Numbered from the stretch's first letter, positions 5,913 to 33,634 are shown. The stretch: DNA of 64,000 nucleotides from a virus (IMGVR_UViG_3300025871_000005:12445-76444); one strand, 5' to 3'. A program made the numbers and translations. Notes: generated from the sequence alone by a model not told the origin.

Positions 5913-6442
5913 AATTGTTCCCTCAACTTTATGAAACGATTAATGAACAACTGTTCTGCCTCATGAGGCAATAATGGAACAATCACCTCTTTCACAGGCT
6001 GTGATTTGATATTCCAGTCATCATACGCAGAATATTGCATCAGATCTCTCACTTCTGCTGCAAACACTCTGTGATCTGCACTGTTTATGTCATCCTGATC
6101 AAAATTTTCAATATGAAATCTGTGATAGATTTCATCCATTAACACTTTTTCAACATTCCTGTATTCAGAAAACATTGATGTCATTTTGTAAGGTGTTGGA
6201 ATGTCAACTATGTATGCTTCTGACGCATCATGGAGCAGAGCAGCAAAACTGTTCACTGGATTTACATAATTTGAAACAAGAACACTGTGTTGTGCAACAG
6301 AATAGAATTGTTTTGTATGTCCTGAAAATCTGCACATATTTGATAATGCATGCGCAATGTCTTCAATATTGATGACACACTTTTTGGGTTCAAGTGGATT
6401 GAACAGATTTCCTGAGTATGTTATTATGTGCACATTAATCAA
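5909..6442 (-). CDS. HD-domain 5'-deoxynucleotidase (YfbR/YfdR-like)
   Basis: IEDIAHALSNMCRFSGH, YSVAQHSVLVS, LLHDASEAYIVDIPTPYK. Confidence 0.85.
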   Translation of the reverse strand: MINVHIITYSGNLFNPLEPKKCVINIEDIAHALSNMCRFSGHTKQFYSVAQHSVLVSNYVNPVNSFAALLHDASEAYIVDIPTPYKMTSMFSEYRNVEKVLMDEIYHRFHIENFDQDDINSADHRVFAAEVRDLMQYSAYDDWNIKSQPVKEVIVPLLPHEAEQLFINRFIKLREQL

Positions 6443-7022
6443 CTTTCAGCATAAAATTTGGATGATGTTGATGACATCTGGGTTCATACAGATCAGAACC
6501 ACCAACTTCAATTTCCTGATCTGATATGTTCTTTTTGTGAGTAAAGTGGGCATCTTCACCGCACACTGTGCAAACAGCTGTGCACTTTTCAATGTGTGTT
6601 GCCCACGGGAACATCTTTTCAATCTCTTTGAAAGGTTTACAACTTGATGACATGTCAAGTGATGACACAATGATATCAATTCCATTTCTGTACAGCCATA
6701 TCAATGCATCAGCAACATCTGGTATCATGAATGCTTCATCAACAGCAATTACATTTGGTTCAATTGAAGGATTTGATAGGTGTTCAAAAATGTCTTCACC
6801 AGTTTTTATTACAGTTGCAGGCCATTTGAAACCATTGTGTGTAACAACATCAGACGTTGAATACCGATCATCAATTGATGGTTTGTACACGACAATTGAT
6901 TTCTGTTGATATTTGCACTTTTCAAGTGCAGACATCAGATGGCTTGTTTTTGAACTAAACATTGGTCCAACAAACATTCTGAATGTATTATTTTTCATTC
7001 TTATCCTTTTTTGTTGAAACAA
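6435..7022 (-). CDS. tdk: Thymidine kinase
   Basis: GPMFSSKTS, KPSIDDRY, IAVDEAFM, CTVCG, YEPRCHQH. Confidence 0.92.
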   Translation of the reverse strand: MFQQKRIRMKNNTFRMFVGPMFSSKTSHLMSALEKCKYQQKSIVVYKPSIDDRYSTSDVVTHNGFKWPATVIKTGEDIFEHLSNPSIEPNVIAVDEAFMIPDVADALIWLYRNGIDIIVSSLDMSSSCKPFKEIEKMFPWATHIEKCTAVCTVCGEDAHFTHKKNISDQEIEVGGSDLYEPRCHQHHPNFMLKVD

Positions 7023-11477: not shown

Positions 11478-12041
11478 TCAGTCCAAAATATAACTTTGTG
11501 TTTCAGAGAGTGCCCACAATGGAAATACTTCCAACATCTTTTCTCTTATCTCCTGGAGCTCTCTCTCAATATTTTCGTCATCAACAAACAATTCCAACCA
11601 TTTGCATCCAGAAATCATTCTGAAGTCATCGTAATGTCTCTGAATACTGTTGAGACTGTTTTCGTCTATTGATTGATCAAGATCATCACGTATTCCACTG
11701 AATGACTTTCTTTTGCAATGAATGATCAATGTATCAAGTTTAGAATATCCCTCATCAAGTGCCATGATTGCATCGATGTCTGTTTCCCTATTGAAATGTT
11801 TTGAATATGCATATTCACAAGGAAATTCACGATCAAATATGACACTGCTGCCTGTCTGTCTAATGAAATCAAGCAAATATTGTGATGAAACCCTTATGTT
11901 TGTCAAGAATCTATCCTGACCATGCAGGAAGCTTCCATGTTCACTTGATGCCTTGAAAACAGGAATATTGAGAACTCTTGAAAGTTGATGGGCAATGTTT
12001 GTTTTACCACACATATCAGCGCCAACAAAAATTATGATCAT
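11478..12041 (-). CDS. dNMP kinase-like P-loop protein (candidate modified-dCMP kinase)
   Basis: GADMCGKT Walker A; VIFDR motif of the thymidylate kinase fold. Confidence 0.75.
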   Translation of the reverse strand: MIIIFVGADMCGKTNIAHQLSRVLNIPVFKASSEHGSFLHGQDRFLTNIRVSSQYLLDFIRQTGSSVIFDREFPCEYAYSKHFNRETDIDAIMALDEGYSKLDTLIIHCKRKSFSGIRDDLDQSIDENSLNSIQRHYDDFRMISGCKWLELFVDDENIERELQEIREKMLEVFPLWALSETQSYILD

Positions 12042-12045
12042 TGTG

Positions 12046-12483
12046 TCACCATACTACAATTTTACGTCCTGATTTTACAATCCTATTTGCAACATTTTTT
12101 GCGATTGAGATCACATGGTCAAATCTTCCAGTTTTGTCAACTGATTCATTTTCAACATTTGTTTCAAACGTGATTGGAATTGGAACTGGATTTCCTTGCA
12201 GTCTGATACACTGATTTAACACATCAATCTGTGTGCATAAACGTTTCATGAGTTCTGTCTTTGCGCTGTTCAGAACATCAATGATACAATTTTCTGGATC
12301 ACTGTTTGACATTCTGAATTCAATACACTTGTGTTCAACATCTGTCAACTCTGCTATCCAAACGGTATCCTTGTAAAACTGCAAGCAGATCTCAATCTTG
12401 GCGTCACTGTACATGTACATTCCATCACCCAAATGCGTGAAAACCAAACCTGCAAATTCTGTTGTTTCTTGTGTGTTGTTCAC
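12046..12483 (-). CDS. Hypothetical protein
   Basis: 145-aa ORF tiled in the operon. Confidence 0.5.
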   Translation of the reverse strand: MNNTQETTEFAGLVFTHLGDGMYMYSDAKIEICLQFYKDTVWIAELTDVEHKCIEFRMSNSDPENCIIDVLNSAKTELMKRLCTQIDVLNQCIRLQGNPVPIPITFETNVENESVDKTGRFDHVISIAKNVANRIVKSGRKIVVW

Positions 12484-13794
12484 TTATTCACCCAATGTTT
12501 TCAATTTCCAACTTGTTGTTGATGCACCAAAATCATTCTTTTCAACCTCTGCTATGCACAATGTCAAATTCTTGATCACGTTCTTATCACTCTTCCAACC
12601 CCAAATGTTCATGCGTTCAATTTTTGATTTTGAACCCATGACTTCAGCACTCAGGAATTCTTTTCCAGTCTTTGTCCTTTTCAGATTTGAACCATTGACA
12701 ACAAACCAAACGACCTCCTTCTCACCCTGCTCAAGTTCATCAACAGATTTGATGCCTTTTGTTTCAAGTGTACCCCAGATTTCATCATCAATGATCATTC
12801 TTACATCAACTGTCCCAAGAATTTCTGCTTGAAAATCTGCCAATTCACGTTTTGTCCATTCACCCGGCAACTCTTCTGCATCATACTTTTGTGCATACTC
12901 ATCAATGAGTCGCAAAAAATTGTTGTAACCCTGATACTGATCACGTTTTGAAACCTTTTTGATTTCATCCTTGTGCACAATCATAACATCATGCATATGT
13001 TTGTATGATCTGAACAGCTTTCCTGAGCCAACAACATCCAATGAACCGAATGCTCCCAACTTAATGAGTGCATCAAGTGCTTTTGAGTTGAATTTTGATG
13101 GTCGCCAACTTCCATCAGCATTCCAAAACATATCTTTGAAATCAGTGATTGGACGCATTGACAACAATTCTTCAACTGCACTCTCACCAACTCCCTTACA
13201 TGATAGGAGTGATGGCATGAATTTTTTTCCTTCAATGCATGTCCAACCTTTTCCTGCATATTGCACATCAATTGGAACAATCTTGTAACCAAGTTTTCTG
13301 ATTTCACCAATTGCTGTTGCTTTATCATCAGGATTGTTTGACATGCTCTCAAGATAGGTTGTCAACCATTCCTTTTCATAGTGTGTCAGTAGCCATGCAC
13401 ACATATATGAATCAATTGCATAAGCGATTGCATGGCTTTTGTTGAACCCGTATGAAGAATAGAACAATATATTCTGATATGCTTGTCGTGCTGTCTCTTC
13501 TTTGATACCCTGACTGACAGCACCATCAACAAATTGATCTTCCATTTTCTTTGCTTCTGCTATGGCAGCCTCACCCTTTGAAAGATCACGTTTCATAATT
13601 GCTCTACGAACGTTATCACATTGGTCTTTGGGGAAAAGCCCAATGATTTCGGCCAATTCCATGACTGACTCTTGGAAAATTAAACAATTATGTGCGAGAA
13701 TTCCATTTGCAATGAAATTATGATTCCCAGTTTGAATATCATATGTCACATCTTTATTGATGTGTTTTATAGATTTCACTTTAGTGTAAATCAT
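12484..13794 (-). CDS. dnaE: DNA polymerase III alpha fragment 4 (split-intein C part plus fingers/HhH/OB)
   Basis: 36-aa IntC ending ILAHN, then CLIFQESVM, YGFNKSHAIAY, KGVGE. Confidence 0.9.
   Translation of the reverse strand: MIYTKVKSIKHINKDVTYDIQTGNHNFIANGILAHNCLIFQESVMELAEIIGLFPKDQCDNVRRAIMKRDLSKGEAAIAEAKKMEDQFVDGAVSQGIKEETARQAYQNILFYSSYGFNKSHAIAYAIDSYMCAWLLTHYEKEWLTTYLESMSNNPDDKATAIGEIRKLGYKIVPIDVQYAGKGWTCIEGKKFMPSLLSCKGVGESAVEELLSMRPITDFKDMFWNADGSWRPSKFNSKALDALIKLGAFGSLDVVGSGKLFRSYKHMHDVMIVHKDEIKKVSKRDQYQGYNNFLRLIDEYAQKYDAEELPGEWTKRELADFQAEILGTVDVRMIIDDEIWGTLETKGIKSVDELEQGEKEVVWFVVNGSNLKRTKTGKEFLSAEVMGSKSKIERMNIWGWKSDKNVIKNLTLCIAEVEKNDFGASTTSWKLKTLGE
13687..13794 (-). mobile_element. 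Split intein 2, C-fragment
   Basis: KVKSI...VTYDIQTGNHNFIANGILAHN followed by Cys+1. Confidence 0.9.
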
Positions 13795-14771
13795 ATTGGT
13801 AAAACTCTTAATTCATTTGGATATATGTCCATTTTTGATGCCCATACTCTTTGTAAATCGTAACCTTCTTTTATGGCTCGTTTTGTATGTGATATATCAA
13901 TATTGAATTGTTGTTTCATTTTATCTGTTAATTCAAAACATTCTTTGTTTCCATGCCAATAATCACCATCAAATTCAATGATTAGATTTAGACTTTTGAC
14001 ATAAAAGTCATATTCATGACCACTTTCTTGTAGTTTGAACTTGTGTACAACGTTATCTTGACCATAAAAATCACACAATATTTTATAGAATTGCAATTCT
14101 TGATTTGATGTTGTTTGAGGTGCAGAACGATATTTTACACCTTCTTTAACTGATAAACAATGCTGCCTATATTTTTCTTCGTCATGTAATTGATAATGTG
14201 CAAGAAAATTTCGATTTCTTTTGAAAACTTTACCACAAATTTCACACGTAACATTTCGTTGTTCTTGATCAGCACTACAATATGATTTATGAGACCTTAA
14301 AGAAAGATTTGTTTCAAATTTTTTGTGACATTTTTCACATTCAAAATCACCAAATTTCACAATATTTTCACGTTTTTTACCTAAATTTTGATTTGCTTTC
14401 CATTCAGGCGTTATTGTTCTTCCTTTGTACAAAATTGATCTTAATTCATAAGCACATTTTTTCGAACAACATTTACGTGATTTTCTACTATTTGAAACAA
14501 TAAATGTCTTATTGCACATTTGACATATTATTTCAGTTCGCGCTTCTTTCCATTCAATTGTTTCTTTTTTGCTTTTAAGATAAAGAGACTTACAATATTT
14601 TGAACAAGTTTTTACACGTTCACATCTTGTTTCACAACCGCAAATAACACATACACCCTTTTTTAATGTTCTAGAATGCGCATCTTTACAAGCTCTTGAA
14701 CAATATTTTGAATCAATTTTTTTTGAAAGATATTCTATATTACAATGTACACATCGTTTACTAAATTTCAT
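13791..14771 (-). CDS. Free-standing homing endonuclease, Vsr/DUF559-like (EDxHD type), with Cys-repeat and C2H2 Zn fingers
   Basis: Repeats CxxC...CSxxC; SNQE...YDFYV...IIEFDGDYWHG...D; lies between IntN2 and IntC2. Confidence 0.8.
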   Translation of the reverse strand: MKFSKRCVHCNIEYLSKKIDSKYCSRACKDAHSRTLKKGVCVICGCETRCERVKTCSKYCKSLYLKSKKETIEWKEARTEIICQMCNKTFIVSNSRKSRKCCSKKCAYELRSILYKGRTITPEWKANQNLGKKRENIVKFGDFECEKCHKKFETNLSLRSHKSYCSADQEQRNVTCEICGKVFKRNRNFLAHYQLHDEEKYRQHCLSVKEGVKYRSAPQTTSNQELQFYKILCDFYGQDNVVHKFKLQESGHEYDFYVKSLNLIIEFDGDYWHGNKECFELTDKMKQQFNIDISHTKRAIKEGYDLQRVWASKMDIYPNELRVLPI

Positions 14772-15045
14772 AACTCACAATCTCATCATCTTCCATTAAA
14801 TCACCAGCACATACCCAACCTCTCTTTGTCATAATTTTATGTTCTGGTGTGCATTTTAATGTCCCTGTTTCAGTTTCTATCATAATGAGATCTTGAGTTC
14901 CATTACAAACTTTTGCCTTAACAATGTCTTGCTCATAGTGTTGAGTTTTTTCATTGAATGATATGATCTCATCACCAATTTCTATATCACTTAAACTTTT
15001 TTGTTGCAAATTTGCCAATAGAATTAGTGTATCACCTGTGAGACA
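14761..15045 (-). mobile_element. Split intein 2, N-fragment (94 aa)
   Basis: Block A CLTGDTLI; block B CTPEH. Confidence 0.9.
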
Positions 15046-15393
15046 ATTATATGTTTCTCCCAACACTTTTTCAAAGAGTGGATGCCCCCATTCAAACTTT
15101 TCACCCTTCTTTGCCTTGAGATAGATCTTGTCAACATTTGCAGCCAAGGGTCCAGGTCTATAGATTGCTGTCAACACAGCAATGTCAACAATTGACTTTG
15201 GCTCTGCTTGTCTGAACAGTCTCTGCGCACCCTTTGATGTCAACTGAAATATCCCAGGGAATGCTTCACCTTTGTAGACATCAAATGTTTTCTGATCATC
15301 ATAATTGTTTGCATCAGGATGAAGATTCTGTTCATACCACTTCTTGATATCAAGAAATTCTGGTTGTTCTGTTGTAATATTTCTTATTTTCAT
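14761..15393 (-). CDS. dnaE: DNA polymerase III alpha fragment 3 plus split-intein N part
   Basis: GIFQLTS, AIYRPGPL, GETYN then CLTGDT...CTPEHKIMTKRGW. Confidence 0.9.
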   Translation of the reverse strand: MKIRNITTEQPEFLDIKKWYEQNLHPDANNYDDQKTFDVYKGEAFPGIFQLTSKGAQRLFRQAEPKSIVDIAVLTAIYRPGPLAANVDKIYLKAKKGEKFEWGHPLFEKVLGETYNCLTGDTLILLANLQQKSLSDIEIGDEIISFNEKTQHYEQDIVKAKVCNGTQDLIMIETETGTLKCTPEHKIMTKRGWVCAGDLMEDDEIVSYEI

Positions 15394-15655
15394 CCAATAT
15401 CACCCTTTTGAAATCATCATAGTTGAGTGTTTCCAAATCTGGAAATCTTGTCATCTTTTCTGGTTTGGTATAAAAATTGGGTGCCCATATGTCATCACCC
15501 AATCTGTCACTGACATACACAAACACAAGCCAACCACCATCACAATAAACTCTTAAACCAATCCATTTTTTGTCAACATAGTCTGTTGTTCGAATAACAG
15601 AATTCCACATTTCCATCAACTGTTCACTATTGAATTTATTTGAATTTCCAATCAT
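15350..15655 (-). CDS. Hypothetical protein (island inside dnaE)
   Basis: 101-aa ORF overlapping the fragment 3 start. Confidence 0.5.
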   Translation of the reverse strand: MIGNSNKFNSEQLMEMWNSVIRTTDYVDKKWIGLRVYCDGGWLVFVYVSDRLGDDIWAPNFYTKPEKMTRFPDLETLNYDDFKRVILDENKKYYNRTTRIS

Positions 15656-15881
15656 TGAAAACTTTCATCAATTGTTCAACGTTTTTGCACTCACTCATTT
15701 CAACAAAAAATTGATGATTATATTTGAATAACCAATGATTTAGAATGTGAATTCTTGAATATGACATCAGAATTCTACTGTCGTCATACATTTTCGGAAT
15801 TTCCGGAAAAAATACAACTTTATGATCTCCCCAAACAAAACTGCCATAACCAGCTCTGTGCACCTTCAATTTGAGATTCAC
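15636..15881 (-). CDS. Hypothetical protein (island inside dnaE)
   Basis: 81-aa ORF with ATGA overlap. Confidence 0.5.
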   Translation of the reverse strand: MNLKLKVHRAGYGSFVWGDHKVVFFPEIPKMYDDSRILMSYSRIHILNHWLFKYNHQFFVEMSECKNVEQLMKVFNDWKFK

Positions 15882-16138
15882 AATAAGCCAAATCTTTCCC
15901 TGAATTCATCAGTGTTCAGACTGCACAATCTTGTCATAGTTTCCCAATCCCACAATGTCATGACATCAGTGCTCAGATCGTTAACCAAAAAGCCATCATG
16001 ATCAGAAATTGTTCTGTTAACAATTCGTGGATTCCACAGCAGAACACAATTTCCTGAATACATAAATGCCCAAAGTCCAGTTTTGTACACTTTGAGTGTG
16101 TCAATTTTGGATGACAACAAAATTTCAACTGTGTTCAT
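15878..16138 (-). CDS. Hypothetical protein (island inside dnaE)
   Basis: 86-aa tiled ORF. Confidence 0.5.
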   Translation of the reverse strand: MNTVEILLSSKIDTLKVYKTGLWAFMYSGNCVLLWNPRIVNRTISDHDGFLVNDLSTDVMTLWDWETMTRLCSLNTDEFRERFGLL

Positions 16139-16274
16139 TCAATAAACCAATAATGATTTTCATAATTCTTGGGCGCTTTTTTGATATCATCTTGACTGTG
16201 TGCTCTTCACACTGTGTGAGATCATTTCCTGATATGGATCCAATGTTGTCTCTGTATATTCTCAACGTTAACAT
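16125..16274 (-). CDS. Possible 49-aa hypothetical protein
   Basis: Manual translation MLTLRIYRDNIG...LNEHS fills the gap between neighbours. Confidence 0.3.
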   Translation of the reverse strand: MLTLRIYRDNIGSISGNDLTQCEEHTVKMISKKRPRIMKIIIGLLNEHS

Positions 16275-16277
16275 AAT

Positions 16278-16532
16278 TCATTCCTGTTCACAATCATCTG
16301 GAAGTTTTACCAACATCATTCTCACAAGTTCAATCTTTTCATCCACAACCTTCAACACTGCAATTGCAGATCGCAATCTCTTCTCTAAATCATCTGTTGA
16401 CAATTTCAGCTCACCATTCTGTGCAGATATCTCTGACAACTGTTCAATTGTGTACCTGATCAAACCTGATATATCTGTTGGTCTCAATGAGTTCATGCTC
16501 TGATTATAAAACCCAACTGTGACAGTATTCAC
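16278..16532 (-). CDS. Hypothetical coiled-coil protein
   Basis: 84-aa ORF. Confidence 0.45.
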   Translation of the reverse strand: MNTVTVGFYNQSMNSLRPTDISGLIRYTIEQLSEISAQNGELKLSTDDLEKRLRSAIAVLKVVDEKIELVRMMLVKLPDDCEQE

Positions 16533-16556
16533 ATATACTTACAATTAAGTTTTAGT

Positions 16557-17699
16557 ATGCAATATTTCAAAAGTGACAAAGAGATTGGTAAACTTTTCAA
16601 AGAATATATGACTGATTTTTTGTATTTGACTGAAATTTTGAACGAAGAATACGCTGATAAATTCAGGGAATTTGATAATGAAATCAAAACAATAATAATC
16701 ATTTACAACAACGTCAGTAGTGGTAAAGGATTGTCAACAATTGACAGATCTAAAAAGAGATACAATTTTTACAAACAATTGCTAAATTTGTCTGATGAAC
16801 AGGCAGAAGCATACAAAGAGTTCAATCTTAGTGGTCGACTCGATCAAAAACAGATCACTGTGCTCAAACCTGTGTTCACAAAATTGTTTGATATGCTATC
16901 TGGAAAAGATCCAAAAGGTTTGGCTCATGAATTGTATAACACTGTGTTTCATGATGAATTCATAAAGGCTGAAAAACAGAAACAAAAATTCTTGAAAAAG
17001 AGCAGCAAGAACAGTGGGGGTCGTCTTGATCTGATTGCTTTTGGCAGTGAAAGAAATCTGCCAGAATTGGATAACAAATTTGAGCAACGGCTGCACACTG
17101 CAATCAGCAGTCATCTTGATCATGCTGGTATGCAAATTCAGTATGTCACTGCAATCAGGAACATCCTGAAACAGGGACTGTATGATGATGTGTTCACACG
17201 ACCAAATGTTCAAAAAGTTTACAGGGGAATGGGCGTCAAATATGAATGGTTGAAGGCTGCTATTGGTGCCAAGAAGGGTGAGGTTGCAATCAAGGATGGA
17301 CACATTGAAAAACGTTTCACATGGCACCCAAAAAAGAATGCAGGAAGTTGGACTAAGAGTCTGAGAACAGCAAAACGTTTTGCCAATGAAAACAGTAATA
17401 TGAAAAGTGGAACGGTTCCCATTGTAATGGTTGCCTACACTGATGAGAACAGTGATGATGTTTTCCTTGATGCAAGATTGTGGTACAAAAACATCAGTGA
17501 TGAATATTCAAATGAGCGTGAAGTGATATCACTCAGTGATATCAAGGTTGGTGAAATCATGTGGTTTGATGCAGACCCAGAGAACTCTGGGATTTATCCA
17601 TGGGAACAGGATAAAAAGCAAAAAATTGTTGATAAACTTGCCAATATTCCAAAACAATCATTCAGCAAAGTGTTGAAAAAACATGCAGGGAAGAAATGA
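16557..17699 (+). CDS. ADP-ribosyltransferase-like protein (R-S-ExE), paralog 1, with N-terminal helical extension
   Basis: LDLIAFG, VYRGM, GSWT, NEREV; TACTTA upstream. Confidence 0.7.
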   Translation: MQYFKSDKEIGKLFKEYMTDFLYLTEILNEEYADKFREFDNEIKTIIIIYNNVSSGKGLSTIDRSKKRYNFYKQLLNLSDEQAEAYKEFNLSGRLDQKQITVLKPVFTKLFDMLSGKDPKGLAHELYNTVFHDEFIKAEKQKQKFLKKSSKNSGGRLDLIAFGSERNLPELDNKFEQRLHTAISSHLDHAGMQIQYVTAIRNILKQGLYDDVFTRPNVQKVYRGMGVKYEWLKAAIGAKKGEVAIKDGHIEKRFTWHPKKNAGSWTKSLRTAKRFANENSNMKSGTVPIVMVAYTDENSDDVFLDARLWYKNISDEYSNEREVISLSDIKVGEIMWFDADPENSGIYPWEQDKKQKIVDKLANIPKQSFSKVLKKHAGKK

Positions 17700-17703
17700 T
17701 CAT

Positions 17704-17940
17704 TCATGGAAGATTGTGAACAATATTCAGTATTGAACTGAATTGATACTGATCAAACCTGTAAAAGAGCACACAAACATTGTATGGTTCACAACTCAAT
17801 CTTGAAATGAATTTCAATCCATTCTGTTCAACTGACGCATTCATATCATAATATGACATCTGCTTTGTTACTGACCTGTTGTGAGATATGTAACCCTTCT
17901 TTTCAAGTTCATTCTCAACAATTTTTTGTATTGTTAACAT
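17704..17940 (-). CDS. Hypothetical protein (island inside dnaE)
   Basis: 78-aa ORF. Confidence 0.45.
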   Translation of the reverse strand: MLTIQKIVENELEKKGYISHNRSVTKQMSYYDMNASVEQNGLKFISRLSCEPYNVCVLFYRFDQYQFSSILNIVHNLP

Positions 17941-18169
17941 CGCGCTTCAACCTATTCAACACTGTTCTGTAATCATTGATGATGAATTGTGTATGTTTCA
18001 TTCCTGTCAACGTACGTGTATCATATACGTCCATATGCCAAACATGATCAACAACATCTTCATAGATTTCTTTCAATAAAAAATCATGATGGCCATTCTC
18101 AAAACGTTGATTGTATTGAAACTTTAACGTACCTTTACGATACACAATCATTTTTATTGTTATCATCAT
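17915..18169 (-). CDS. Hypothetical protein (island inside dnaE)
   Basis: 84-aa ORF; ATGA overlap with the fragment 2 stop. Confidence 0.45.
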   Translation of the reverse strand: MMITIKMIVYRKGTLKFQYNQRFENGHHDFLLKEIYEDVVDHVWHMDVYDTRTLTGMKHTQFIINDYRTVLNRLKRDVNNTKNC

Positions 18170-19020
18170 GGCGTCAAGATTTCATCATCATCCTTCAATT
18201 CATTAGCAAACACTTCACCTCTTTGTGTCATAACCAATTGATCTGGTAGCAATCTCATCACTGTACCATCCTCAAGTTCAATCTGTTTGATGCCTCCTTT
18301 ACCCTTTATGACCTTTTCAACTGTATTTTCAATTAGTCTCATTGTTTCAAGACCTAACAGGTCATATTTAATGATTCCATTTGGTTCAAGCGTTTTTCCA
18401 CCAACACCTTCGACCCAAGGCGTTTGAGGTTCACCACCATTTGTAATGAGAGGCATTTCTCCCATTGCATCATCCATAATGACAACACCTCCAGCATGCC
18501 GACCCAATGATCTCTGCTCTTTAAAGAGAATTTCCATACTCTCTGCAACCTCAGGATGCCTCTCAATAAAACTTCTGAAACTTTCTGAATACTTCATTGC
18601 ATCCTCAAATTTGAGAACAAAAAGGTTTTTATCATCACCATGTTTCATGGTTGCCTTTCTGACCTCCTTTTCAACAGTTTTTGTTGCCTCATTTGCTTCT
18701 TCAAATGGAATTCCATAAAACTTTGAAATATCTTTCAGGAGCGTTTTCACTTTGAACGTGTTGATATTTGAAATTGGAATAACATTGTTCATTCCAAACT
18801 TTTCTCTCAATACTTCAAGAACTTTATCACGATCACTGATGTCGCAATCTATGTCTGGTGCACCTGAATTATGTGTCAAATACCAATCAGAATTTCCTTG
18901 TTTACAAAAAAATGTATGATCGACGTCAACAGTAATATCATACAAAATTTGTTCTTCATCATATTCACACAATTCAACGCTTGTAATTATGTTGTTTGAC
19001 AAGATATTTTGTTGCTCCAT
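18166..19020 (-). CDS. dnaE: DNA polymerase III alpha fragment 2 (IntC, catalytic palm, degenerate Hint tail)
   Basis: YLTHN then SGAPDIDCD (catalytic Asps), GRHAGGVVI, KYDLLGL; likely start ATG 19020. Confidence 0.9.
   Translation of the reverse strand: MEQQNILSNNIITSVELCEYDEEQILYDITVDVDHTFFCKQGNSDWYLTHNSGAPDIDCDISDRDKVLEVLREKFGMNNVIPISNINTFKVKTLLKDISKFYGIPFEEANEATKTVEKEVRKATMKHGDDKNLFVLKFEDAMKYSESFRSFIERHPEVAESMEILFKEQRSLGRHAGGVVIMDDAMGEMPLITNGGEPQTPWVEGVGGKTLEPNGIIKYDLLGLETMRLIENTVEKVIKGKGGIKQIELEDGTVMRLLPDQLVMTQRGEVFANELKDDDEILTP
18868..19020 (-). mobile_element. Split intein 1, C-fragment (51 aa)
   Basis: ITSVE...LYDITVDVDHTFF...LTHN followed by Ser+1. Confidence 0.88.
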
Positions 19021-19903
19021 AATTTCTATTTTCAATATTTGGTATAACACTATACAAATTCTTTTCTTTAAGAAAAGAATAAAAATCATTCATATAAATA
19101 ACTTTAATGTTAACATGTTGTTCATCAATTACACGTTGTCTAACATCAGAATTTGAGTTGATCAATAATGAAAAATTATTTGACTCAGATTTTCTTACGC
19201 CTTTCAATTCAATATAACAATTCAACTCATTATTCCAAAAATCAGGCGTATAATGTCTTATTTGATTATCAACCAATATCTCAAATGTTTTTGGTTCATA
19301 TTCATAAGCAATATTTGAATATTGCAAATATCTTGCATAATCAGCTTCAAACGCAGATTTGAAATAATGATTACCCTTTATATCAATTCTGTATCCACTT
19401 CTTCCATTGACATGAATATGAATTTTTCCATTTGATTGTGCTATCATTTGACAATTTCTAGAACAAAAACGCTTTCGTTCATAAGCTGACTTTTTGATTT
19501 GAAATGTCTTATTACAAATTTCACATTGTTTTTCCAATGATGTTCTCTTAGAAAGAGATGAACATTGCGGAGAACAATATTTTCTATTACAAGAAATGTT
19601 TACATCAAAATTTTTCCCGCAATGTTCACATTTTAAGCTTTTTTTATCACTTGACAATCGTTGTGATTGATTGATATTTTTACATTCTTTTGAACAAACC
19701 TTTCTAGCTGATTGTGATTTGTAAACTCGCACCTCTTTTCCACAAATGATACATTGTTTAACAATCTTTTCACCATTTTCAGGACGCCTATTCCATGCAT
19801 TTTTACATTTTGAACCACAAAAACGTCGTTTTTGAATTGAGTAATTTTTGTTTGTATCATCAATGATAAAATCACAATTACAATTTACACATTTTCTAAT
19901 CAT
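18974..19903 (-). CDS. Free-standing PD-(D/E)xK homing endonuclease with Cys repeats
   Basis: Repeats CxxC...CSxxC; YEYEPKTF...YTPDF...YIELKG; lies between IntN1 and IntC1. Confidence 0.78.
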   Translation of the reverse strand: MIRKCVNCNCDFIIDDTNKNYSIQKRRFCGSKCKNAWNRRPENGEKIVKQCIICGKEVRVYKSQSARKVCSKECKNINQSQRLSSDKKSLKCEHCGKNFDVNISCNRKYCSPQCSSLSKRTSLEKQCEICNKTFQIKKSAYERKRFCSRNCQMIAQSNGKIHIHVNGRSGYRIDIKGNHYFKSAFEADYARYLQYSNIAYEYEPKTFEILVDNQIRHYTPDFWNNELNCYIELKGVRKSESNNFSLLINSNSDVRQRVIDEQHVNIKVIYMNDFYSFLKEKNLYSVIPNIENRNYGATKYLVKQHNYKR

Positions 19904-20171
19904 TAGCTATTATCTGATCATCTTTACATAAGTGTTCAGCCTCAACTAATTCAAATTTTCCATTACGAATAATTGGCCAACGATGTTTTCTAGAACAAAC
20001 AATAGTTTGTCCATTCACAATGAACTTAACATACTGCAATGTTTTTGTTTCAAATTTGTCAAGAATTTTTCTTGTTTCTCCACTTCCACCAATAATTTCA
20101 TCCCCAATATTAAGTTCTGAAATTGATTTATTGCCAATTGGTGTTCGAACTAATGTTTCACCTGGTAAACA
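19896..20171 (-). mobile_element. Split intein 1, N-fragment (91 aa)
   Basis: Block A CLPGETLV; block B CSRKHRW. Confidence 0.88.
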
Positions 20172-21719
20172 TCTATGAGGATTCAGGAACCTCTCGAATG
20201 AAAGATTATACTTTAAAGGGTCAATGTCTGTGATTTCCAATAGATAAACAACCAATGAACCGCCAGATGAACCTCTTGCGACCCCAAGAAGACATACATC
20301 CCTTGCCAATCTGAGTGCTCCTGCCAATGTGACAAAGTATGAAGCGTTGTCAAGCTTCTTGATGATGCTCAACTCATACTTCATCCTCTCAACATATTCA
20401 GGCTTTTTATCCAAACCTTTTTTGATCATTCCATCCTTTACAAGTTTGCACAAATATTTGAATTCCGTTGTATCACTGGGTACAACCGATTTTGGATATT
20501 TGTATCCCTGATCAAATTTGATATCTTCAATTACATTGTGAGCAATATCATGTGTCCTCTCAATTGCATCACACACCAACTGTTCAACACCATCTTCTCT
20601 GTAAAACTTGTGCTGATCTTGGCGTTGTTTGAAACCTTCCCACATCTGCTCTGCATTCTTTGGATACAGGAGTGCTTTCACATCCTCAACAGACTTTGGC
20701 AAGCTTTCAGGTCCCAATTCACTATAATTCATGAACCCAAGTTTTTTGTACATCTCTCTATGACGCCACAGATCAGGTCTTGGATAATGACTGTCACACG
20801 TTGCAATCAACTGTTCAGTCATTCCATTCCTTTTTGCAAATTCAATGATTGCTCTGTTGACAACATCCTGAGCAGGAATTTTGTGAAATTGCAATTCAAG
20901 AAGAAAATTTTTCACACCAACTGCACTGATGAGTGGATCAGCTATGTTCCCAATCTCATTCAGAACTCTGCGCATGATGTTTTCGTCATCAAGAATTTCA
21001 GGATTGAGATCATCAAAATTGACAGTTCTCAATGTTTGCAACACAGCATATGATATTGGACCCCCAAGACATGCAGATGACAGAATGATGTCATCCTTTG
21101 CCTCCTTCAGGATCATCCCCAAATCAATTCTGGGAAATCTGTAGAACCCTTCTATATAACCCCTGGAAACAATGTGAAATATTTTCTTGAGGGCACCTGA
21201 TGTCTTTGGGAGCACAACAAGATGATGGCGACGATTGAGAGGATTGAAGGCCTTTATATTTCGCGTTTCATCCTCATTCTCAATTGTCAATGCATTTGAC
21301 ATTTCAATATCAACAATGTCGTCGTCATCATCTGTCTTCACACTGATGTTCTTGAGACCTTCTTCACGTTTTTTCAGTTTCTTCTGAAGCTTTTTATCCT
21401 CTTTTGCTTCCTCATACAGAGCCCTGTCTTGAGCCCACTGTTCAAGACTTGGGTGATAGTATGCCTCAACTCCTGGAATGTATTTGAACTGTGTTCCTGC
21501 TTTTTTCCACTTCTGATTGAAGAGATATGCTTGTGCAAAACTGTTCATATGACCATGTTCAGTGATTGCCATCCCATCAAGTCCATTGCTCAATGCAAAT
21601 TTGAAATGATCTTCTGCAGGACCCATACCATCATAGGTTGAAGCTCCTGTGTGACTATGAAGTCCAAAAAACTTCTTTGGCACCAGAGTGCTGTTCCTTT
21701 CATCAATATGATTTGTCAC
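19896..21719 (-). CDS. dnaE: DNA polymerase III alpha fragment 1 (PHP domain) plus split-intein N part
   Basis: LHSHT, ITEHG, GVEAY, DSHY, GVARGSSGGSLVVYLL, FERFLNPHR then CLPGET. Confidence 0.92.
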   Translation of the reverse strand: MTNHIDERNSTLVPKKFFGLHSHTGASTYDGMGPAEDHFKFALSNGLDGMAITEHGHMNSFAQAYLFNQKWKKAGTQFKYIPGVEAYYHPSLEQWAQDRALYEEAKEDKKLQKKLKKREEGLKNISVKTDDDDDIVDIEMSNALTIENEDETRNIKAFNPLNRRHHLVVLPKTSGALKKIFHIVSRGYIEGFYRFPRIDLGMILKEAKDDIILSSACLGGPISYAVLQTLRTVNFDDLNPEILDDENIMRRVLNEIGNIADPLISAVGVKNFLLELQFHKIPAQDVVNRAIIEFAKRNGMTEQLIATCDSHYPRPDLWRHREMYKKLGFMNYSELGPESLPKSVEDVKALLYPKNAEQMWEGFKQRQDQHKFYREDGVEQLVCDAIERTHDIAHNVIEDIKFDQGYKYPKSVVPSDTTEFKYLCKLVKDGMIKKGLDKKPEYVERMKYELSIIKKLDNASYFVTLAGALRLARDVCLLGVARGSSGGSLVVYLLEITDIDPLKYNLSFERFLNPHRCLPGETLVRTPIGNKSISELNIGDEIIGGSGETRKILDKFETKTLQYVKFIVNGQTIVCSRKHRWPIIRNGKFELVEAEHLCKDDQIIAND

Positions 21720-21730
21720 AATGTTTCTTT

Positions 21731-22033
21731 CTAAATTTGACTATGCAAATAGCTCAAAATATCGTTAATGTTTATCTTTGTCAAGATTGCATTGGGTATA
21801 TGACCCCACAATACTATTGAATTCTTGTTCAATACACCCCTAATTCCTGGGAATTTTATGTATTGTTCAATACTGCGTTCACCTGGTATCATCCAAACAC
21901 AAATTGGTGGTGTACGTGAACCATGATAGTGTATTTTTACATGTCCTTTCGCACTACCACATTTATTGACAGTTATCGACTTTTCCACCGTGAAAGTGTT
22001 CATTAACAGTTTTCTCCAACAAATGCTCATCAA
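21731..22033 (-). CDS. Hypothetical protein
   Basis: About 100-aa tiled ORF. Confidence 0.4.
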   Translation of the reverse strand: MMSICWRKLLMNTFTVEKSITVNKCGSAKGHVKIHYHGSRTPPICVWMIPGERSIEQYIKFPGIRGVLNKNSIVLWGHIPNAILTKININDILSYLHSQI

Positions 22034-22529
22034 AATTTGTGATGGTGTTCAACAGAATTGGCTTGTATTCGGTCATCTCAACTGACACACATGTGTGTGC
22101 ACAAGTCAATTTGACACTTTGATCATACCCATTATTGTGTATATGTCCATGAACAATGTGCACATTGTTTGCAAACTTTTCACTCATTCTCTGAGGATAG
22201 TGTCTCAACAGAAGATTTCCACACACCAACCGTTTTGTGTATACAATTCCACAATATTCAAGAAAATGTTTTTTGTCATGATTACCCAACAACACAATCA
22301 GTTTTCCATTCAGGGTGTTGATGAACTGTTTCATTTCATCAAATTTGCTGTTTGGAACAAGAGCAAGATCACCCAAGTGAATAACTGTATCATCCTCACC
22401 AATTGCACTGTTCCAATTCATTCTCATAACACTATTCATTTGGAATGAATTCACAAATGGTCTATTGCAATATTTGATGATGTTTGCATGAGAAAAATGT
22501 GTATCAGAAATTACCCAAATATTTTTCAT
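21963..22529 (-). CDS. Calcineurin-like metallophosphoesterase
   Basis: SDTHFSH, HLGD, LGNHD, HYP, HGHIH. Confidence 0.9.
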   Translation of the reverse strand: MKNIWVISDTHFSHANIIKYCNRPFVNSFQMNSVMRMNWNSAIGEDDTVIHLGDLALVPNSKFDEMKQFINTLNGKLIVLLGNHDKKHFLEYCGIVYTKRLVCGNLLLRHYPQRMSEKFANNVHIVHGHIHNNGYDQSVKLTCAHTCVSVEMTEYKPILLNTITNFDEHLLEKTVNEHFHGGKVDNCQ

Positions 22530-30466: not shown

Positions 30467-33400
30467 TCATCCACATTTTGAATGACCACAATCCATGCAG
30501 GTCACACAACCTTGTTGATAATTCAAATTTTTTCCACCACAACTTGGGCATGTTTCTCTGGATGATGTTCCATCTTTGATGTAATTCTTTGAAAGAACTC
30601 TTGCGATGCAACTTGAGAAGGAAAATATGTCACTATGTTTATCTTTTCTCAGTTGTTCAACAATATGTTGAATTTTTACTCCATGTCTGAGTGAAAGACT
30701 GAGAGTTCTTGTGAATGCACCATGCATTGGGTTATCAAAAAGATTGACAATATCTTTGAACATGATGTGATCATCATCTCCAAATGGAATCTTCAAATTG
30801 TACGTTGCAAGCCCATCACTATTCTTTCCATTCTTAATGAGAATACCAGACTTCACCTTTTTTGGCACTTCAACATGTGCAGAAAGACCTGCAAATATTT
30901 CATATGGCTGTCCATTCAACAATCCAATCACAACAAGATAGCTCTCACCCTTAACATTCACTCTGTGAATATCGCATGGCAATTCCTTCTCTCTCTTTGG
31001 TGCAGGAGACATCAGAATATTCTTTGGTCTGTATTCAGGGTTCTTATTTATGAGTTCTTGAAACTTTAACTCAATGTCTTCTGGATTGCTTGAATTCACT
31101 GTCTTGGTGTCATCTGAAACCAATACACCACTCCTTGAACCTTCTCTGTAGATTGTTACACCTTTACAGCCAGTTTCCCAACCTTTCATATAGATCTGTT
31201 TAACCGTGTCAACAGAAACGTTTTCAGGAAGATTCACTGTGTTGCTTATTGCATGATCAACCCACTTCTGGGCTGCAGCTTGAAGTTCAATCTTTTTCAA
31301 CCAATCAATGTCATTGGCTGTTGCACCCCAATATGGTGACTTTTCAATGTCATCATCTGACAGTCCAGTTATCCTTTTCCATTCATTGAAACCATGATGA
31401 CTGACTGTGAATTCTTGCCATTTATCACCCATTGGATCAACATAATCAACAGGAGTATTTTCATCGCCAACATTGATCTTTTTTCTGCGCTTATATTGAA
31501 TTTTGAAAACCGGTTCACAACCAGATGTTGTTTGTGTCATAATTGAAACAGAACCTGCAGGAGCTGTTGTTAAAAGTGCAATGTTCCTTCTGCCCGCAAT
31601 TGACATCAATTTTCTGATATCCTCTTCATCTTTTACCTGATTCAGGAATTCATTATCTTTTTCAAGATTTTCATCATAGACAGGAAATGCACCACGTTCT
31701 TGTGCCATAATACAAGAAGATTTGTAAGCACTGACACAATGATTTCTGTACACTTCACTTGTGAAATTAATTGATTGGTCAGAACCATATTTCATTCCCA
31801 ACTCGGCAATTGCATCACCCAATGCTGTTATACCCAAACCGGTTCGACGACCATTTTGAGCCTTTGTTTTTATTCGCTTCCAAAGATTGAATTCTCTTGC
31901 TTTAACATCTTCTGGTTCTTTATCGTTCTCAATTTTGTTGATGATTTTATCAACTGCTTCCAATTCAAGATCAACAAGATCATCCATTAAACGTTGTGCT
32001 TTCATGACAACATTTCTGTAACGATCATGATTGAATTTTGCATTTTCTGTGAAACGGTTTTCAACAAAATTGTGCAAATTCACCAATAATAACCTGCATG
32101 AATCTTCAGGACAATTTGGTAATTCACCACATTGTTTGTTGTTTATCATCAATTTTTGACCATTTTCATTCCAACCACCAACATAGAAATTGTGTACATC
32201 ATCAACAGTTCCATTGTATACGTCTTCATGCCCAACAAACCTGATATCAACAATTTTTATAGCAAAATTTGATTGCAAAATAATTTTTTCACACTTATTA
32301 TCTATTTTTTGTGCACAATCTTGACAAAATGAAATTTCTCTATTTGAATATGGTACCCAAAATTCATTACCACAATGTTCACAAATTTTCTTTACATACA
32401 ATATTCCATCAATATTTTTGAATTCATAATGTTGAATAAACAATTCAGTATTATGTTGTTGTACTTCAATGTAGAGTGCATCACCAACTGATAAATCACA
32501 AATTTCTTTATATTCGCCTTTGATTGTCATAAATTTGTGGTTTTTTGTTGCACGAATTTTATGACCATTTTCTAATGTTAATTCATATATTGGTTCATTT
32601 TTTCCAGTTAATCTTGGATTTCTCATTGTTTTTACAACAATTTTTCCATTTTCATCCAATGCGTAAACCAATACATCTAAACCTTCTTTTGCCAATTGAC
32701 CAATTTCAACAAATTCTCTGCCATCTGCAACTGCAACCATTGTATCTGCAGTTAAACATGGGTTTGTTGATGTTGTTTTAAACCCATATGACGCATAACT
32801 GTCAGCAGGTGAACGTCTAATCATTGTGTCCCAAAATAGCAAACCTGGTTCTGCACTCTGATGAGCTGCTTCAATGATCTCATTCCACAATTGTTTTGCT
32901 TCAACCCAATCTTCAACCAATGCTGGTTCAGATTTGTCAACAGGAAATCTCAACTTAAATTTGAGATCATTTTTGACAGCAAGCATAAATTCATCTGATA
33001 ATCTAATTGATATGTTTGCACCGGTTACTTTTTTGAGATCCTTTTTTATGTTCAAAAATGTTCTTATTTCTGGGTGATTAATTGAAAGACTCAGCATGAG
33101 GGCACCCCTGCGTCCTCCTTGCGCAACTTCTCGACAGGTATTGCTGAAACGTTCCATAAAAACACCAATGCCATCGGTTGTTTTTGCAGCATTTGTTGTC
33201 ACCAAACCTTTTGGTCTTATTGTTGAAATGTCAAATCCAACGCCCCCACGACGTTTCATGATTTGTGCCTGTTCCTCGTCTGTTTTCAGAATTCCACCAT
33301 AACTGTCATGAGGTGATTCAATCACAAAACAGTTTGATAATGATTGCAATTGATATGGATTTCCAATTGCAGACATAGGTGATCCCTGTGGAACAACATC

Positions 33401-33634
33401 CCAATTTGATAAGAGTTGATATATTTCATCATATTGCATAGGATTTGGATATTTGTTCTCAATCCTTGCAAATTCTGTTGCAAGTCTTTTGTGCATCTCT
33501 GCTGGTGATGCTTCATAAATTGTGCCTTCAGCATCTTTCAATGCATATTTTGAAACAAAAACTCCTGCAGCCAAATCATCACCATCAAAATAATCCTTAG
33601 AAATTTTGAGTGCATCATCCCTATTGTATGTCAT
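30467..33634 (-). CDS. nrdJ: Class II (B12-dependent) ribonucleotide reductase with intein and C-terminal Zn ribbon
   Basis: SLSNCFV, GGVG, RRGA, TNP-intein-CGE, RRTGLG, APAGS, SGCEP, WVDHAISNTVNL, YREGSR. Confidence 0.93.
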   Translation of the reverse strand: MTYNRDDALKISKDYFDGDDLAAGVFVSKYALKDAEGTIYEASPAEMHKRLATEFARIENKYPNPMQYDEIYQLLSNWDVVPQGSPMSAIGNPYQLQSLSNCFVIESPHDSYGGILKTDEEQAQIMKRRGGVGFDISTIRPKGLVTTNAAKTTDGIGVFMERFSNTCREVAQGGRRGALMLSLSINHPEIRTFLNIKKDLKKVTGANISIRLSDEFMLAVKNDLKFKLRFPVDKSEPALVEDWVEAKQLWNEIIEAAHQSAEPGLLFWDTMIRRSPADSYASYGFKTTSTNPCLTADTMVAVADGREFVEIGQLAKEGLDVLVYALDENGKIVVKTMRNPRLTGKNEPIYELTLENGHKIRATKNHKFMTIKGEYKEICDLSVGDALYIEVQQHNTELFIQHYEFKNIDGILYVKKICEHCGNEFWVPYSNREISFCQDCAQKIDNKCEKIILQSNFAIKIVDIRFVGHEDVYNGTVDDVHNFYVGGWNENGQKLMINNKQCGELPNCPEDSCRLLLVNLHNFVENRFTENAKFNHDRYRNVVMKAQRLMDDLVDLELEAVDKIINKIENDKEPEDVKAREFNLWKRIKTKAQNGRRTGLGITALGDAIAELGMKYGSDQSINFTSEVYRNHCVSAYKSSCIMAQERGAFPVYDENLEKDNEFLNQVKDEEDIRKLMSIAGRRNIALLTTAPAGSVSIMTQTTSGCEPVFKIQYKRRKKINVGDENTPVDYVDPMGDKWQEFTVSHHGFNEWKRITGLSDDDIEKSPYWGATANDIDWLKKIELQAAAQKWVDHAISNTVNLPENVSVDTVKQIYMKGWETGCKGVTIYREGSRSGVLVSDDTKTVNSSNPEDIELKFQELINKNPEYRPKNILMSPAPKREKELPCDIHRVNVKGESYLVVIGLLNGQPYEIFAGLSAHVEVPKKVKSGILIKNGKNSDGLATYNLKIPFGDDDHIMFKDIVNLFDNPMHGAFTRTLSLSLRHGVKIQHIVEQLRKDKHSDIFSFSSCIARVLSKNYIKDGTSSRETCPSCGGKNLNYQQGCVTCMDCGHSKCG
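32132..32758 (-). mobile_element. 209-aa contiguous mini-intein ending in Gln, with a Zn-finger remnant
   Basis: CLTADT...ATKNH...VYNGTVDDVHNFY...NNKQ followed by CGE; internal CEHC..CQDC. Confidence 0.88.

Follow-up and report, generated by a model that had tools for sequence, protein, structure and literature searches.

The IMG/VR record IMGVR_UViG_3300025871_000005 stems from an uncultured giant T4-like phage; it is 269.5 kb long, 74% complete and encodes a T4-type portal and terminase. The window analysed here is a stretch of 64,000 nucleotides (nt) of this record (12445-76444), and positions are counted from its first letter. The minus strand of positions 12484-21719 carries the gene dnaE, which encodes a relative of the alpha subunit of DNA polymerase III (Pol III) and is fractured into four pieces, F1 to F4. 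The order is F1, which ends in the N-terminal intein half IntN1, the endonuclease HE1, F2, which starts with the C-terminal intein half IntC1, a gap of 2.77 kb, F3 with IntN2 at its end, the endonuclease HE2, and F4 with IntC2 at its start. A first-pass annotation of this DNA had described a replicative DnaE in four genes with two split inteins, each of them flanking an endonuclease, and the six main open reading frames (ORFs), all located on the minus strand, were indeed found at the places it had claimed. Both intein units are present; however, F2 and F3 are separated by a third break without a functional intein, and splicing at the two other insertion sites, which are called site 1 and site 3 here, therefore cannot yield a single chain. 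The features of the locus are as follows (aa, amino acids).

F1: 21719..19896, minus strand; 607 aa, ending ..LNPHR then CLPG
F1 extein: 20172..21719, minus strand; 516 aa, PHP domain and first part of the Pol III alpha palm, ending ..FLNPHR
IntN1: 19896..20171, minus strand; 91 aa plus stop, Cys1 (CLPG) and block B C-S-R-K-H
HE1: 18974..19903, minus strand; 309 aa, free-standing endonuclease
F2: 19020..18166, minus strand; 284 aa from the MEQQ start, ORF open from 19089
IntC1: 18868..19020, minus strand; 51 aa, block F D-H-T-F-F, block G L-T-H-N and +1 Ser (..LTHN then SGAPDIDCD)
F2 extein: 18298..18867, minus strand; palm with the catalytic PDIDxD through the last palm helix, Pfam DNA_pol3_alpha 1.5e-21
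F2 tail: 18166..18297, minus strand; 43 aa plus stop, catalytically dead remnant of an N-intein's C-terminal half
F2-F3 cargo gap: 15394-18165, mixed strands; 2.77 kb
F3: 15393..14761, minus strand; 210 aa, ending ..GETYN then CLTG
F3 head: 15364..15393, minus strand; 10 aa (MKIRNITTEQ), resembling the first strand of a C-intein, absent from uninterrupted relatives
F3 extein: 15046..15363, minus strand; first part of the fingers, ending ..GETYN, Pfam DNA_pol3_finger 3e-21
IntN2: 14761..15045, minus strand; 94 aa plus stop, Cys1 (CLTGDT) and block B T-P-E-H
HE2: 13791..14771, minus strand; 326 aa, free-standing endonuclease
F4: 13794..12484, minus strand; 436 aa
IntC2: 13687..13794, minus strand; 36 aa, block F Y-D-I-Q..H-N-F-I-A-N-G, block G A-H-N and +1 Cys (..ILAHN then CLIFQE)
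F4 extein: 12484..13686, minus strand; 400 aa plus stop, rest of the fingers, helix-hairpin-helix (HhH) and C-terminal region, Pfam HHH_6 and DNA_pol3_finger

Pfam detects the domain PHP (5e-23) and the first 98 positions of the catalytic domain DNA_pol3_alpha (4e-24) in F1. The MEQQ start of F2 is backed by gene callers and by alleles, and the F2 extein can be aligned to residues 461-642 of Taq Pol III alpha. Together, F1 to F4 tile the polymerase profile phrog_405 in order (31-439, 442-642, 614-716 and 714-1044). Site 1 lies four residues ahead of the catalytic PDIDxD (Taq Pol III alpha 461-467), and site 3 is located within the fingers (..TYN then CLIFQE). The tight overlaps that had been reported at three junctions were found as described, with 8 nt between F1 and HE1, 11 nt between F3 and HE2 and an ATGA shared by HE2 and F4; at the fourth junction, HE1 and F2 overlap by 47 nt.

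The annotation had named assembly errors as an observation that would refute it. Contigs from three other samples match the 9236 bases of the locus at 100% identity, and in L027, a variant with 92-98% identity, all six ORFs are preserved with unchanged lengths and the gap holds one more gene. The contig is present in the samples ERZ27257428, SRR5007225, SRR22988830 and JGI 3300009780. In L029/L030, which encode an HE2 of only 48% identity, F1, an endonuclease, F2, a 2.8-kb gap with different genes, F3, an endonuclease and F4 follow each other. Given the identical sequence of three other assemblies and the recurrence of the layout in the diverged locus L029, the stops are genuine. For comparison, twenty related IMG/VR loci with 35-44% identity were mapped piece by piece. 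Twelve of these encode the polymerase in one stop-free frame of 1120-1283 aa, and an alignment of the joined exteins with these uninterrupted relatives has no gap at either intein junction, which agrees with the earlier proposal that removal of the inteins restores DnaE in frame. The site 1 intein is present without site 3 in L003, L023 and L040, and the site 3 intein occurs alone in L031. Homologues of HE1 are located between the halves of the site 1 intein in L003, L023, L029 and L040, and homologues of HE2 between those of the site 3 intein in L029 and L031. Proteins resembling F2 form more than 100 clusters at 40-74% identity. A megablast search of the INPHARED phages with the locus gave no match, and the best INPHARED protein matches are about 30% identical.

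Split inteins and their endonucleases

The best solved relative of IntN1 is the gp41-1 intein (E 2.7e-7), and those of IntN2 are the Spl DnaX intein, which is slightly closer, and the NrdJ-1 intein (E 2-5e-7). The Pfam family Intein_splicing matches F3 (2.4e-7) and the start of F4 (3e-5), and in view of all these matches the intein assignment is not due to chance; IntC1, which bears an unusual insertion, was not detected in the Pfam scan. Both units possess the full set of canonical class-1 splicing residues. The alleles at site 1 (L003, L023, L029) and site 3 (L029, L031) share only 27-58% identity with IntN1/IntC1 and IntN2/IntC2, and Cys1, block B (CSxxH or TxxH), the terminal HN and the +1 Ser/Cys are present in every one of them. 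In particular, Cys1 and CSxxH of IntN1 are retained in the alleles of L003, L023 and L029, and the features of IntC1 are retained in those of L023 and L029 as well as in about 25 protein clusters. Such conservation of the catalytic residues is the pattern that selection for splicing predicts. As in other fractured genes, each site consists of colinear ORFs on the same strand, with an upstream N-intein, a downstream C-intein followed by Cys or Ser and an intervening endonuclease gene. Both IntN-endonuclease-IntC units are thus supported as real and look live, with splicing itself predicted from the conserved residues. An RNA hairpin is not apparent before the starts of HE1 and HE2 (fold z-scores of -1.3 and +0.7), and no late-promoter box precedes them, as the only TATAAATA lies on the other strand and is at chance level.

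The two pairs belong to different intein families and, at aligned positions, are 31% identical in their IntN and 33% identical in their IntC parts. The net charges are 0 for IntN1 and -9 for IntC1, and -10 for IntN2 and +2 for IntC2. The IntN/IntC polarity of the two pairs is opposite and mirrors that of gp41-1 and Npu DnaE, for which opposite charge polarity has been described (bioRxiv 10.1101/546465). Mispairing would give F1-F4 or F3-F2 products, and selection against cross-reaction is therefore expected. The cross pair of IntN2 and IntC1 should repel by charge, and gp41-1 and NrdJ-1, which are among the nearest solved relatives of IntN1 and IntN2, were shown experimentally to be an orthogonal pair (PMC7090010). 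Judging from these sequence features and analogies, the two pairs probably do not cross-react. As both have co-evolved naturally and have to serve one protein without mis-joining, they are good candidates for orthogonal pairs, with HR/SG and YN/CL as their native junctions. The fastest split inteins for protein engineering, gp41-1, NrdJ-1 and IMPDH-1, came from fractured genes.

HE1 consists of four Cys4 (YacG-like) zinc ribbons and a T7 endonuclease I-type PD-(D/E)xK nuclease. Its family comprises 42 clusters, and an alignment of 40 sequences revealed that the four Cys4 ribbons, P220-D221 and E232-x-K234 are invariant. The copy in the window reaches 22.7 bits against Pfam PF05367 (Phage_endo_I), for which the cut-off is 29.1, and 15 of the 42 family clusters carry this domain; in the PDB, T7 endonuclease I is matched at E 0.04. 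HE1 had been assigned to the PD-(D/E)xK nucleases before, and the invariant residues as well as the family matches bear this out. It appears to represent an undescribed homing endonuclease architecture, in which four zinc ribbons are combined with a T7 endonuclease I-like core. HE1 and HE2 have an N-terminal array of CxxC...(F/Y)CSxxC modules in common (E 3e-9).

In HE2, a Vsr-like (EDxHD-type) nuclease is combined with zinc ribbons and a pair of C2H2 fingers. Across the 43 clusters of its family, E225, D255, E266, D268, G269 and D270 are invariant, together with W272, H273 and D292 of the nuclease domain. E266, D268, H273 and D292, which are invariant or nearly so in 41-43 members, appear to fit the EDxHD composite motif. 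Family members match DUF559, MTES_1575 and Vsr in Pfam. The AlphaFold2 (AF2) model of the nuclease domain has a predicted local distance difference test (pLDDT) score of 94, and its top four Foldseek matches are Vsr (1cw0, 1vsr) and the catalytic domain of I-Bth0305I (3r3p), with E-values of 2-5e-3, just over 1e-3, a probability of 1.00 and template modelling (TM) scores of 0.5-0.6. Searches of the PDB with the full-length profile are dominated by C2H2 zinc fingers, and the nuclease-only profile yields marginal matches (3hrl at E 0.03, Vsr at E 1.2). Since the sequence matches are only marginal, the Vsr-like assignment of the first-pass annotation, with which the fold model agrees, rests on the Pfam matches of the family and on the fold. 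NCBIfam was uninformative for both endonucleases, and the 269.5-kb record contains no second copy of either. The two C2H2 fingers of HE2 (residues about 141-200; 14171-14351, minus strand) are of the eukaryotic style, which is unusual in a phage nuclease, and are also present in most family members; they match ZBTB24 and ZNF568 in the PDB, and the profile also matches an R2 retrotransposon protein.

Inteins are inserted at no fewer than six sites in this DnaE clade, which makes it a hotspot. Sites beyond the three of the window are GIFQ/C in the fingers, a position near GYGFN(K)/SH and an upstream one at ..AVHN/SGGGSL; examples are P0013, P0026, P0027, P0032, P0034, P0044, L005:14195-14509, L022 and L041:10595-11626. 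In L005, the downstream partner of the N-intein at the GYGFN site is not located within about 5 kb, and the halves may be dispersed. About 45 clusters (among them P0021, P0028-P0030 and P0053; L041:2474-4318 and 6001-6855) have a split intein inside the catalytic motif, at PDID/TD. Its C-intein is very short (16-20 aa, M..HSFL....VVVHN) and its N-piece carries block F too, so that it represents a natural, atypically late split site. In L015:11284-13221, a site 1 split intein has only 86 bp between its halves and no endonuclease, and a separate 1.4-kb insertion lies in the same gene about 30 residues upstream of this intein. Three further, contiguous inteins are encoded by the phage itself, in the large subunit of ribonucleotide reductase, the T4-type portal and the T4-type large terminase (window 30467-33634, minus strand; G000:C1 about 237.0-239.4 kb and 240.2-242.2 kb). 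Those of the reductase subunit and the portal are mini-inteins, and the terminase intein has a LAGLIDADG domain.

The break between palm and fingers

At the F2/F3 break, the window and L005 possess about 50 residues that are missing from uninterrupted relatives, in which palm and fingers are connected by a linker with a fixed length of 28-29 residues (79 proteins). The last 43 residues of F2 align to residues 55-91 of IntN2 with a score of 79, compared to 23+-4 for shuffled sequences, none of which reaches it (0/2000), and this tail is about 40-50% identical to the corresponding part of IntN2. It has LPDQ in place of TPEH and no Cys1. A search with F2 yielded 110 clusters; in about 70 of them the protein terminates at this very point in a similar tail, and none of these tails contains a junction Cys or TxxH. 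A profile built from 74 tails matches the NrdJ-1 intein (E 4.7e-5), followed by VidaL, Spl DnaX and a DnaE intein. The AF2 model of the F2 tail consists of five short strands (pLDDT 70-83), and in a comparison with 48,161 chains, 17 of its 18 best matches are inteins or Hint domains, with the aligned region covering the N-intein from its middle to its C-terminal part; owing to the small size of the module, the Z-scores are low (up to 4.3). On the other side of the break, the proteins that start there have a head of 10-14 aa in common (MKIKxIxxh), similar to the initial strand of C-inteins. The features of a functional intein are lacking at F2/F3: there is neither a junction Cys/Ser nor a TxxH, and the head has no HN and no +1 Cys/Ser/Thr. 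By sequence comparison and modelling, the F2 tail is demonstrably Hint-derived, but it is not an intein.

Tails of 45-70 aa are found in at least 70 clusters and heads of 10-14 aa in at least 14, many of which are below 50% identity. The tails have a mean charge of -2.2 (81% are negative) and the heads one of +1.5. In the gp41-1 intein, a charge zipper links the strand at the C-terminal end of IntN with the first IntC strand, and the assembly of split inteins begins by electrostatic capture between such zipper regions (bioRxiv 10.1101/546465). As tail and head correspond to the zipper strands, the surviving parts would be the association interface, whereas the catalytic parts are gone. A live intein at the F2/F3 site was not found among about 260 related proteins. 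The few in-frame insertions at this site (P0045, P0173, P0273, P0290) have no clear resemblance to the relic and were thus unsuitable as single-chain models.

The content of the break varies between loci. In L041, tail and head flank the gene of a 558-aa homing endonuclease (phrog_3339, E 1e-60), and in L023, a gene for F3-F4 begins in another frame 2 nt after the stop of the tail-bearing F2. The cargo differs among L027, L029, L005 and L041 and is absent in L023. The gap of the window contains about eight ORFs, one of them on the opposite strand, and the small ones match no Pfam or PHROG family. The relatives show a range of stages, which comprise uninterrupted genes, split inteins without or with an endonuclease, a relic with an endonuclease (L041), a relic with unrelated cargo (the present phage), and a relic with nothing in between (L023). 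The simplest history of the third break is an old fractured-intein event, after which splicing was lost and the split was kept.

The opposite-strand ORF in the window (16557-17699, plus strand, 380 aa) has no Pfam or PHROG match and is a paralogue of an ADP-ribosyltransferase (ART)-like family of the phage, with a tblastn match to 54830-55432 (E 3e-18) and further matches at 60.5-63.1 kb. It contains the pattern YRG...SWTKS...NEREV, which is R-S-ExE-like, and the Atlas leads to ART families are weak. The extra gene of L027 (L027:3993-4958, minus strand) encodes 321 aa of no known family, and its presence in the F2-F3 gap indicates that the gap is an active insertion slot. In L029, the gap carries a DnaQ-like 'DNA polymerase exonuclease subunit' on the opposite strand (L029:2544-3368, minus strand; phrog_192, E 4e-16), which is possibly a proofreading partner of the split polymerase.

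From four genes to a polymerase

Read together, the sequence features of the locus suggest, with good though not full confidence, that dnaE has experienced at least three invasions by intein/homing-endonuclease elements, that sites 1 and 3 trans-splice, that the third intein is dead and that the polymerase is assembled non-covalently from two chains. After translation, IntN1 would pair with IntC1 and IntN2 with IntC2, and trans-splicing would follow. F1 and F2 would be joined to a 749-aa chain with PHP domain, palm and relic tail, and F3 and F4 to a 516-aa chain with fingers, HhH and C-terminus. HE1 and HE2 presumably spread their elements by cleaving the intein-less dnaE alleles of relatives that co-infect the cell, and they are probably translated at a low level via coupling to the upstream gene. 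The third break, in the palm-fingers linker, would go back to an older event of like kind, of which the C-terminal half of the N-intein (F2 tail) and the first strand of the C-intein (F3 head) may remain, and the space between F2 and F3 would have turned into a slot for variable cargo genes. Since the intein of the third break is dead, the two spliced chains would stay separate and would have to assemble non-covalently, and the relic perhaps serves as a clip between the 749-aa and the 516-aa chain. One cell would then contain three Hint-derived association modules, two live inteins that ligate and one dead relic that is kept as a non-covalent clip; this extension is tentative, and we hold it to be somewhat more likely wrong than right. 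All three modules would have to tell each other apart, and as the F2 tail resembles IntN2, cross-talk with IntC2 would have to be avoided, or might be exploited, if the relic acts as a clip.

Several points weigh against these proposals. Within F2, conservation is lowest in the tail, with a pairwise identity of 0.30 compared to 0.66 for the palm, the tail model is of only moderate confidence (pLDDT 70), and the tails of the split NrdA of Aeromonas phage Aeh1 are not required for the two pieces to bind (PMC3045599). Charge does not disfavour the cross pair of IntN1 and IntC2, and charge swapping alone failed to make Npu DnaE orthogonal (bioRxiv 10.1101/546465). The hairpin that commonly precedes the endonuclease in the loci of Dassa et al. 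is missing here. Finally, DnaE may share the replicase role, given that a 412-aa ORF encodes a family-A polymerase domain (E 4.5e-19; window about 40789-41439, minus strand; G000:C1:27441-28091); a family-B polymerase was not found in the 74%-complete record. Because of this family-A domain, the label 'replicative' that had been given to DnaE is likely but unproven.

The alternative that survives best is that F2 tail and F3 head are neutral leftovers, in which case the chains would assemble via the normal palm-fingers surfaces and the relic would be idle or have an unrelated role. The low conservation of the tail, the moderate confidence of its model and the Aeh1 NrdA heterodimer, which forms without the tails (PMC3045599), all speak in its favour. 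However, tails and heads have been kept in at least 70 and at least 14 clusters, respectively, whereas uninterrupted relatives have a linker of fixed length, and the parts that were kept are the zipping strands of a split intein with complementary net charge. We therefore regard neutral leftovers as rather unlikely, but as a serious competitor to the clip. It is improbable that one or both of the split inteins do not splice and that four (or three) polypeptides form a non-covalent polymerase, in which the intein halves only associate. As the third break illustrates, the death of an intein need not remove the break, and the unusual insertion of IntC1, together with its escape from Pfam, could be read in the same way; however, every allele examined has Cys1, T/SxxH, HN and the +1 Ser/Cys in spite of its low identity, and the dead relic, by contrast, has lost all of these residues. 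Less probable again is a decaying pseudogene, whose pieces would be unused while the family-A polymerase or that of the host replicates the genome. The family-A domain is encoded about 20 kb away and dnaE is interrupted three times, but all pieces are open and colinear and retain the polymerase motifs, the layout is kept in phages with an endonuclease of only 48% identity, and more than 100 clusters resembling F2 retain 40-74% identity. An assembly or sequencing artefact is effectively refuted by the identical sequence in four assemblies from different samples, and healing of the F2/F3 break at the RNA level, by an intron or translational bypass, is hardly conceivable, as an Rfam scan of 12000-22200 detected neither an intron nor another RNA family, the 2.77 kb gap holds an opposite-strand gene, and the two cistrons of L023, although separated by only 2 nt, differ in frame and have a stop and a start of their own.

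Should the relic indeed work as a clip, it would be evidence that useful protein-protein interfaces can remain from selfish elements. The capture interface of a split intein would have been reused in nature as a docking domain, and the locus would, in addition, supply ready-made orthogonal pairs. Independently of the clip, the gene family displays successive stages of one evolutionary pathway.

Comparison with known systems

The locus elaborates on the known 'fractured gene' layout and does not represent a new type of system. Dassa et al. described 26 fractured loci in 2009, three of which (DnaE-1, DnaE-2 and DnaE-3) are in dnaE, at three different sites; of the dnaE loci, one contains a Vsr-like endonuclease and one an additional intein part in frame (PMC2677866). 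The layout itself had thus rightly been called known by the first-pass annotation. As in these loci, ORFs with IntN and IntC surround a free-standing endonuclease on one strand, often with overlaps, the DNA is phage-like and metagenomic, and dnaE is among the host genes; the Vsr-like endonuclease of DnaE-2 is of similar size (PMC2677866). In contrast to the loci of Dassa et al., which contain one event per short read assembly, two events and a dead third one are combined in one complete gene here, and HE1 is a T7 endonuclease I-like PD-(D/E)xK enzyme, whereas GIY-YIG and Vsr-like endonucleases were listed there (PMC2677866). A hairpin or late-promoter box precedes the endonuclease in 15 of 16 loci of Dassa et al. 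and is not a defining feature (PMC2677866); neither a hairpin that would sequester the ribosome binding site nor such a box was found before HE1 and HE2. At the intein-less SbcD-like locus, a tail of 25 aa and a head of 9 aa were described at the break (PMC2677866). In the literature searched, there is no description of two fractured events in one gene or of a natural intein relic at a break.

Like the split DnaE inteins of cyanobacteria (Ssp and Npu DnaE), the two inteins of this locus are naturally split and located in Pol III alpha, and the full-length chain needs trans-splicing. The cyanobacterial intein, however, has another insertion site, a difference that Dassa et al. also noted for their DnaE loci, its halves are encoded at distant loci without an endonuclease, and there is one intein per gene. 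The gp41-1 and NrdJ-1 inteins are both from fractured genes, and the acidic IntC of gp41-1 matches IntC1, but the similarity is only distant (E about 1e-7), and host proteins and junction residues differ. HE2 shares the nuclease fold with I-Bth0305I, an EDxHD-type enzyme (PMC3239194), and its invariant E, D, H and D appear to fit the composite motif. I-Bth0305I is intron-encoded and binds DNA via NUMOD/helix-turn-helix motifs (PMC3239194), whereas HE2 is free-standing and has Cys4 ribbons and two C2H2 fingers. The best functional analogue of the F2/F3 break is NrdA of Aeromonas phage Aeh1, an essential protein whose gene is split by the endonuclease mobE and whose pieces carry extra C- and N-terminal tails and function unspliced; these tails are needed for activity (Crona et al. 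2010; PMC3045599). The Aeh1 tails arose from the insertion and are not derived from an intein, whereas the F2 tail is demonstrably Hint-derived, and the endonuclease at its side has been replaced by cargo.

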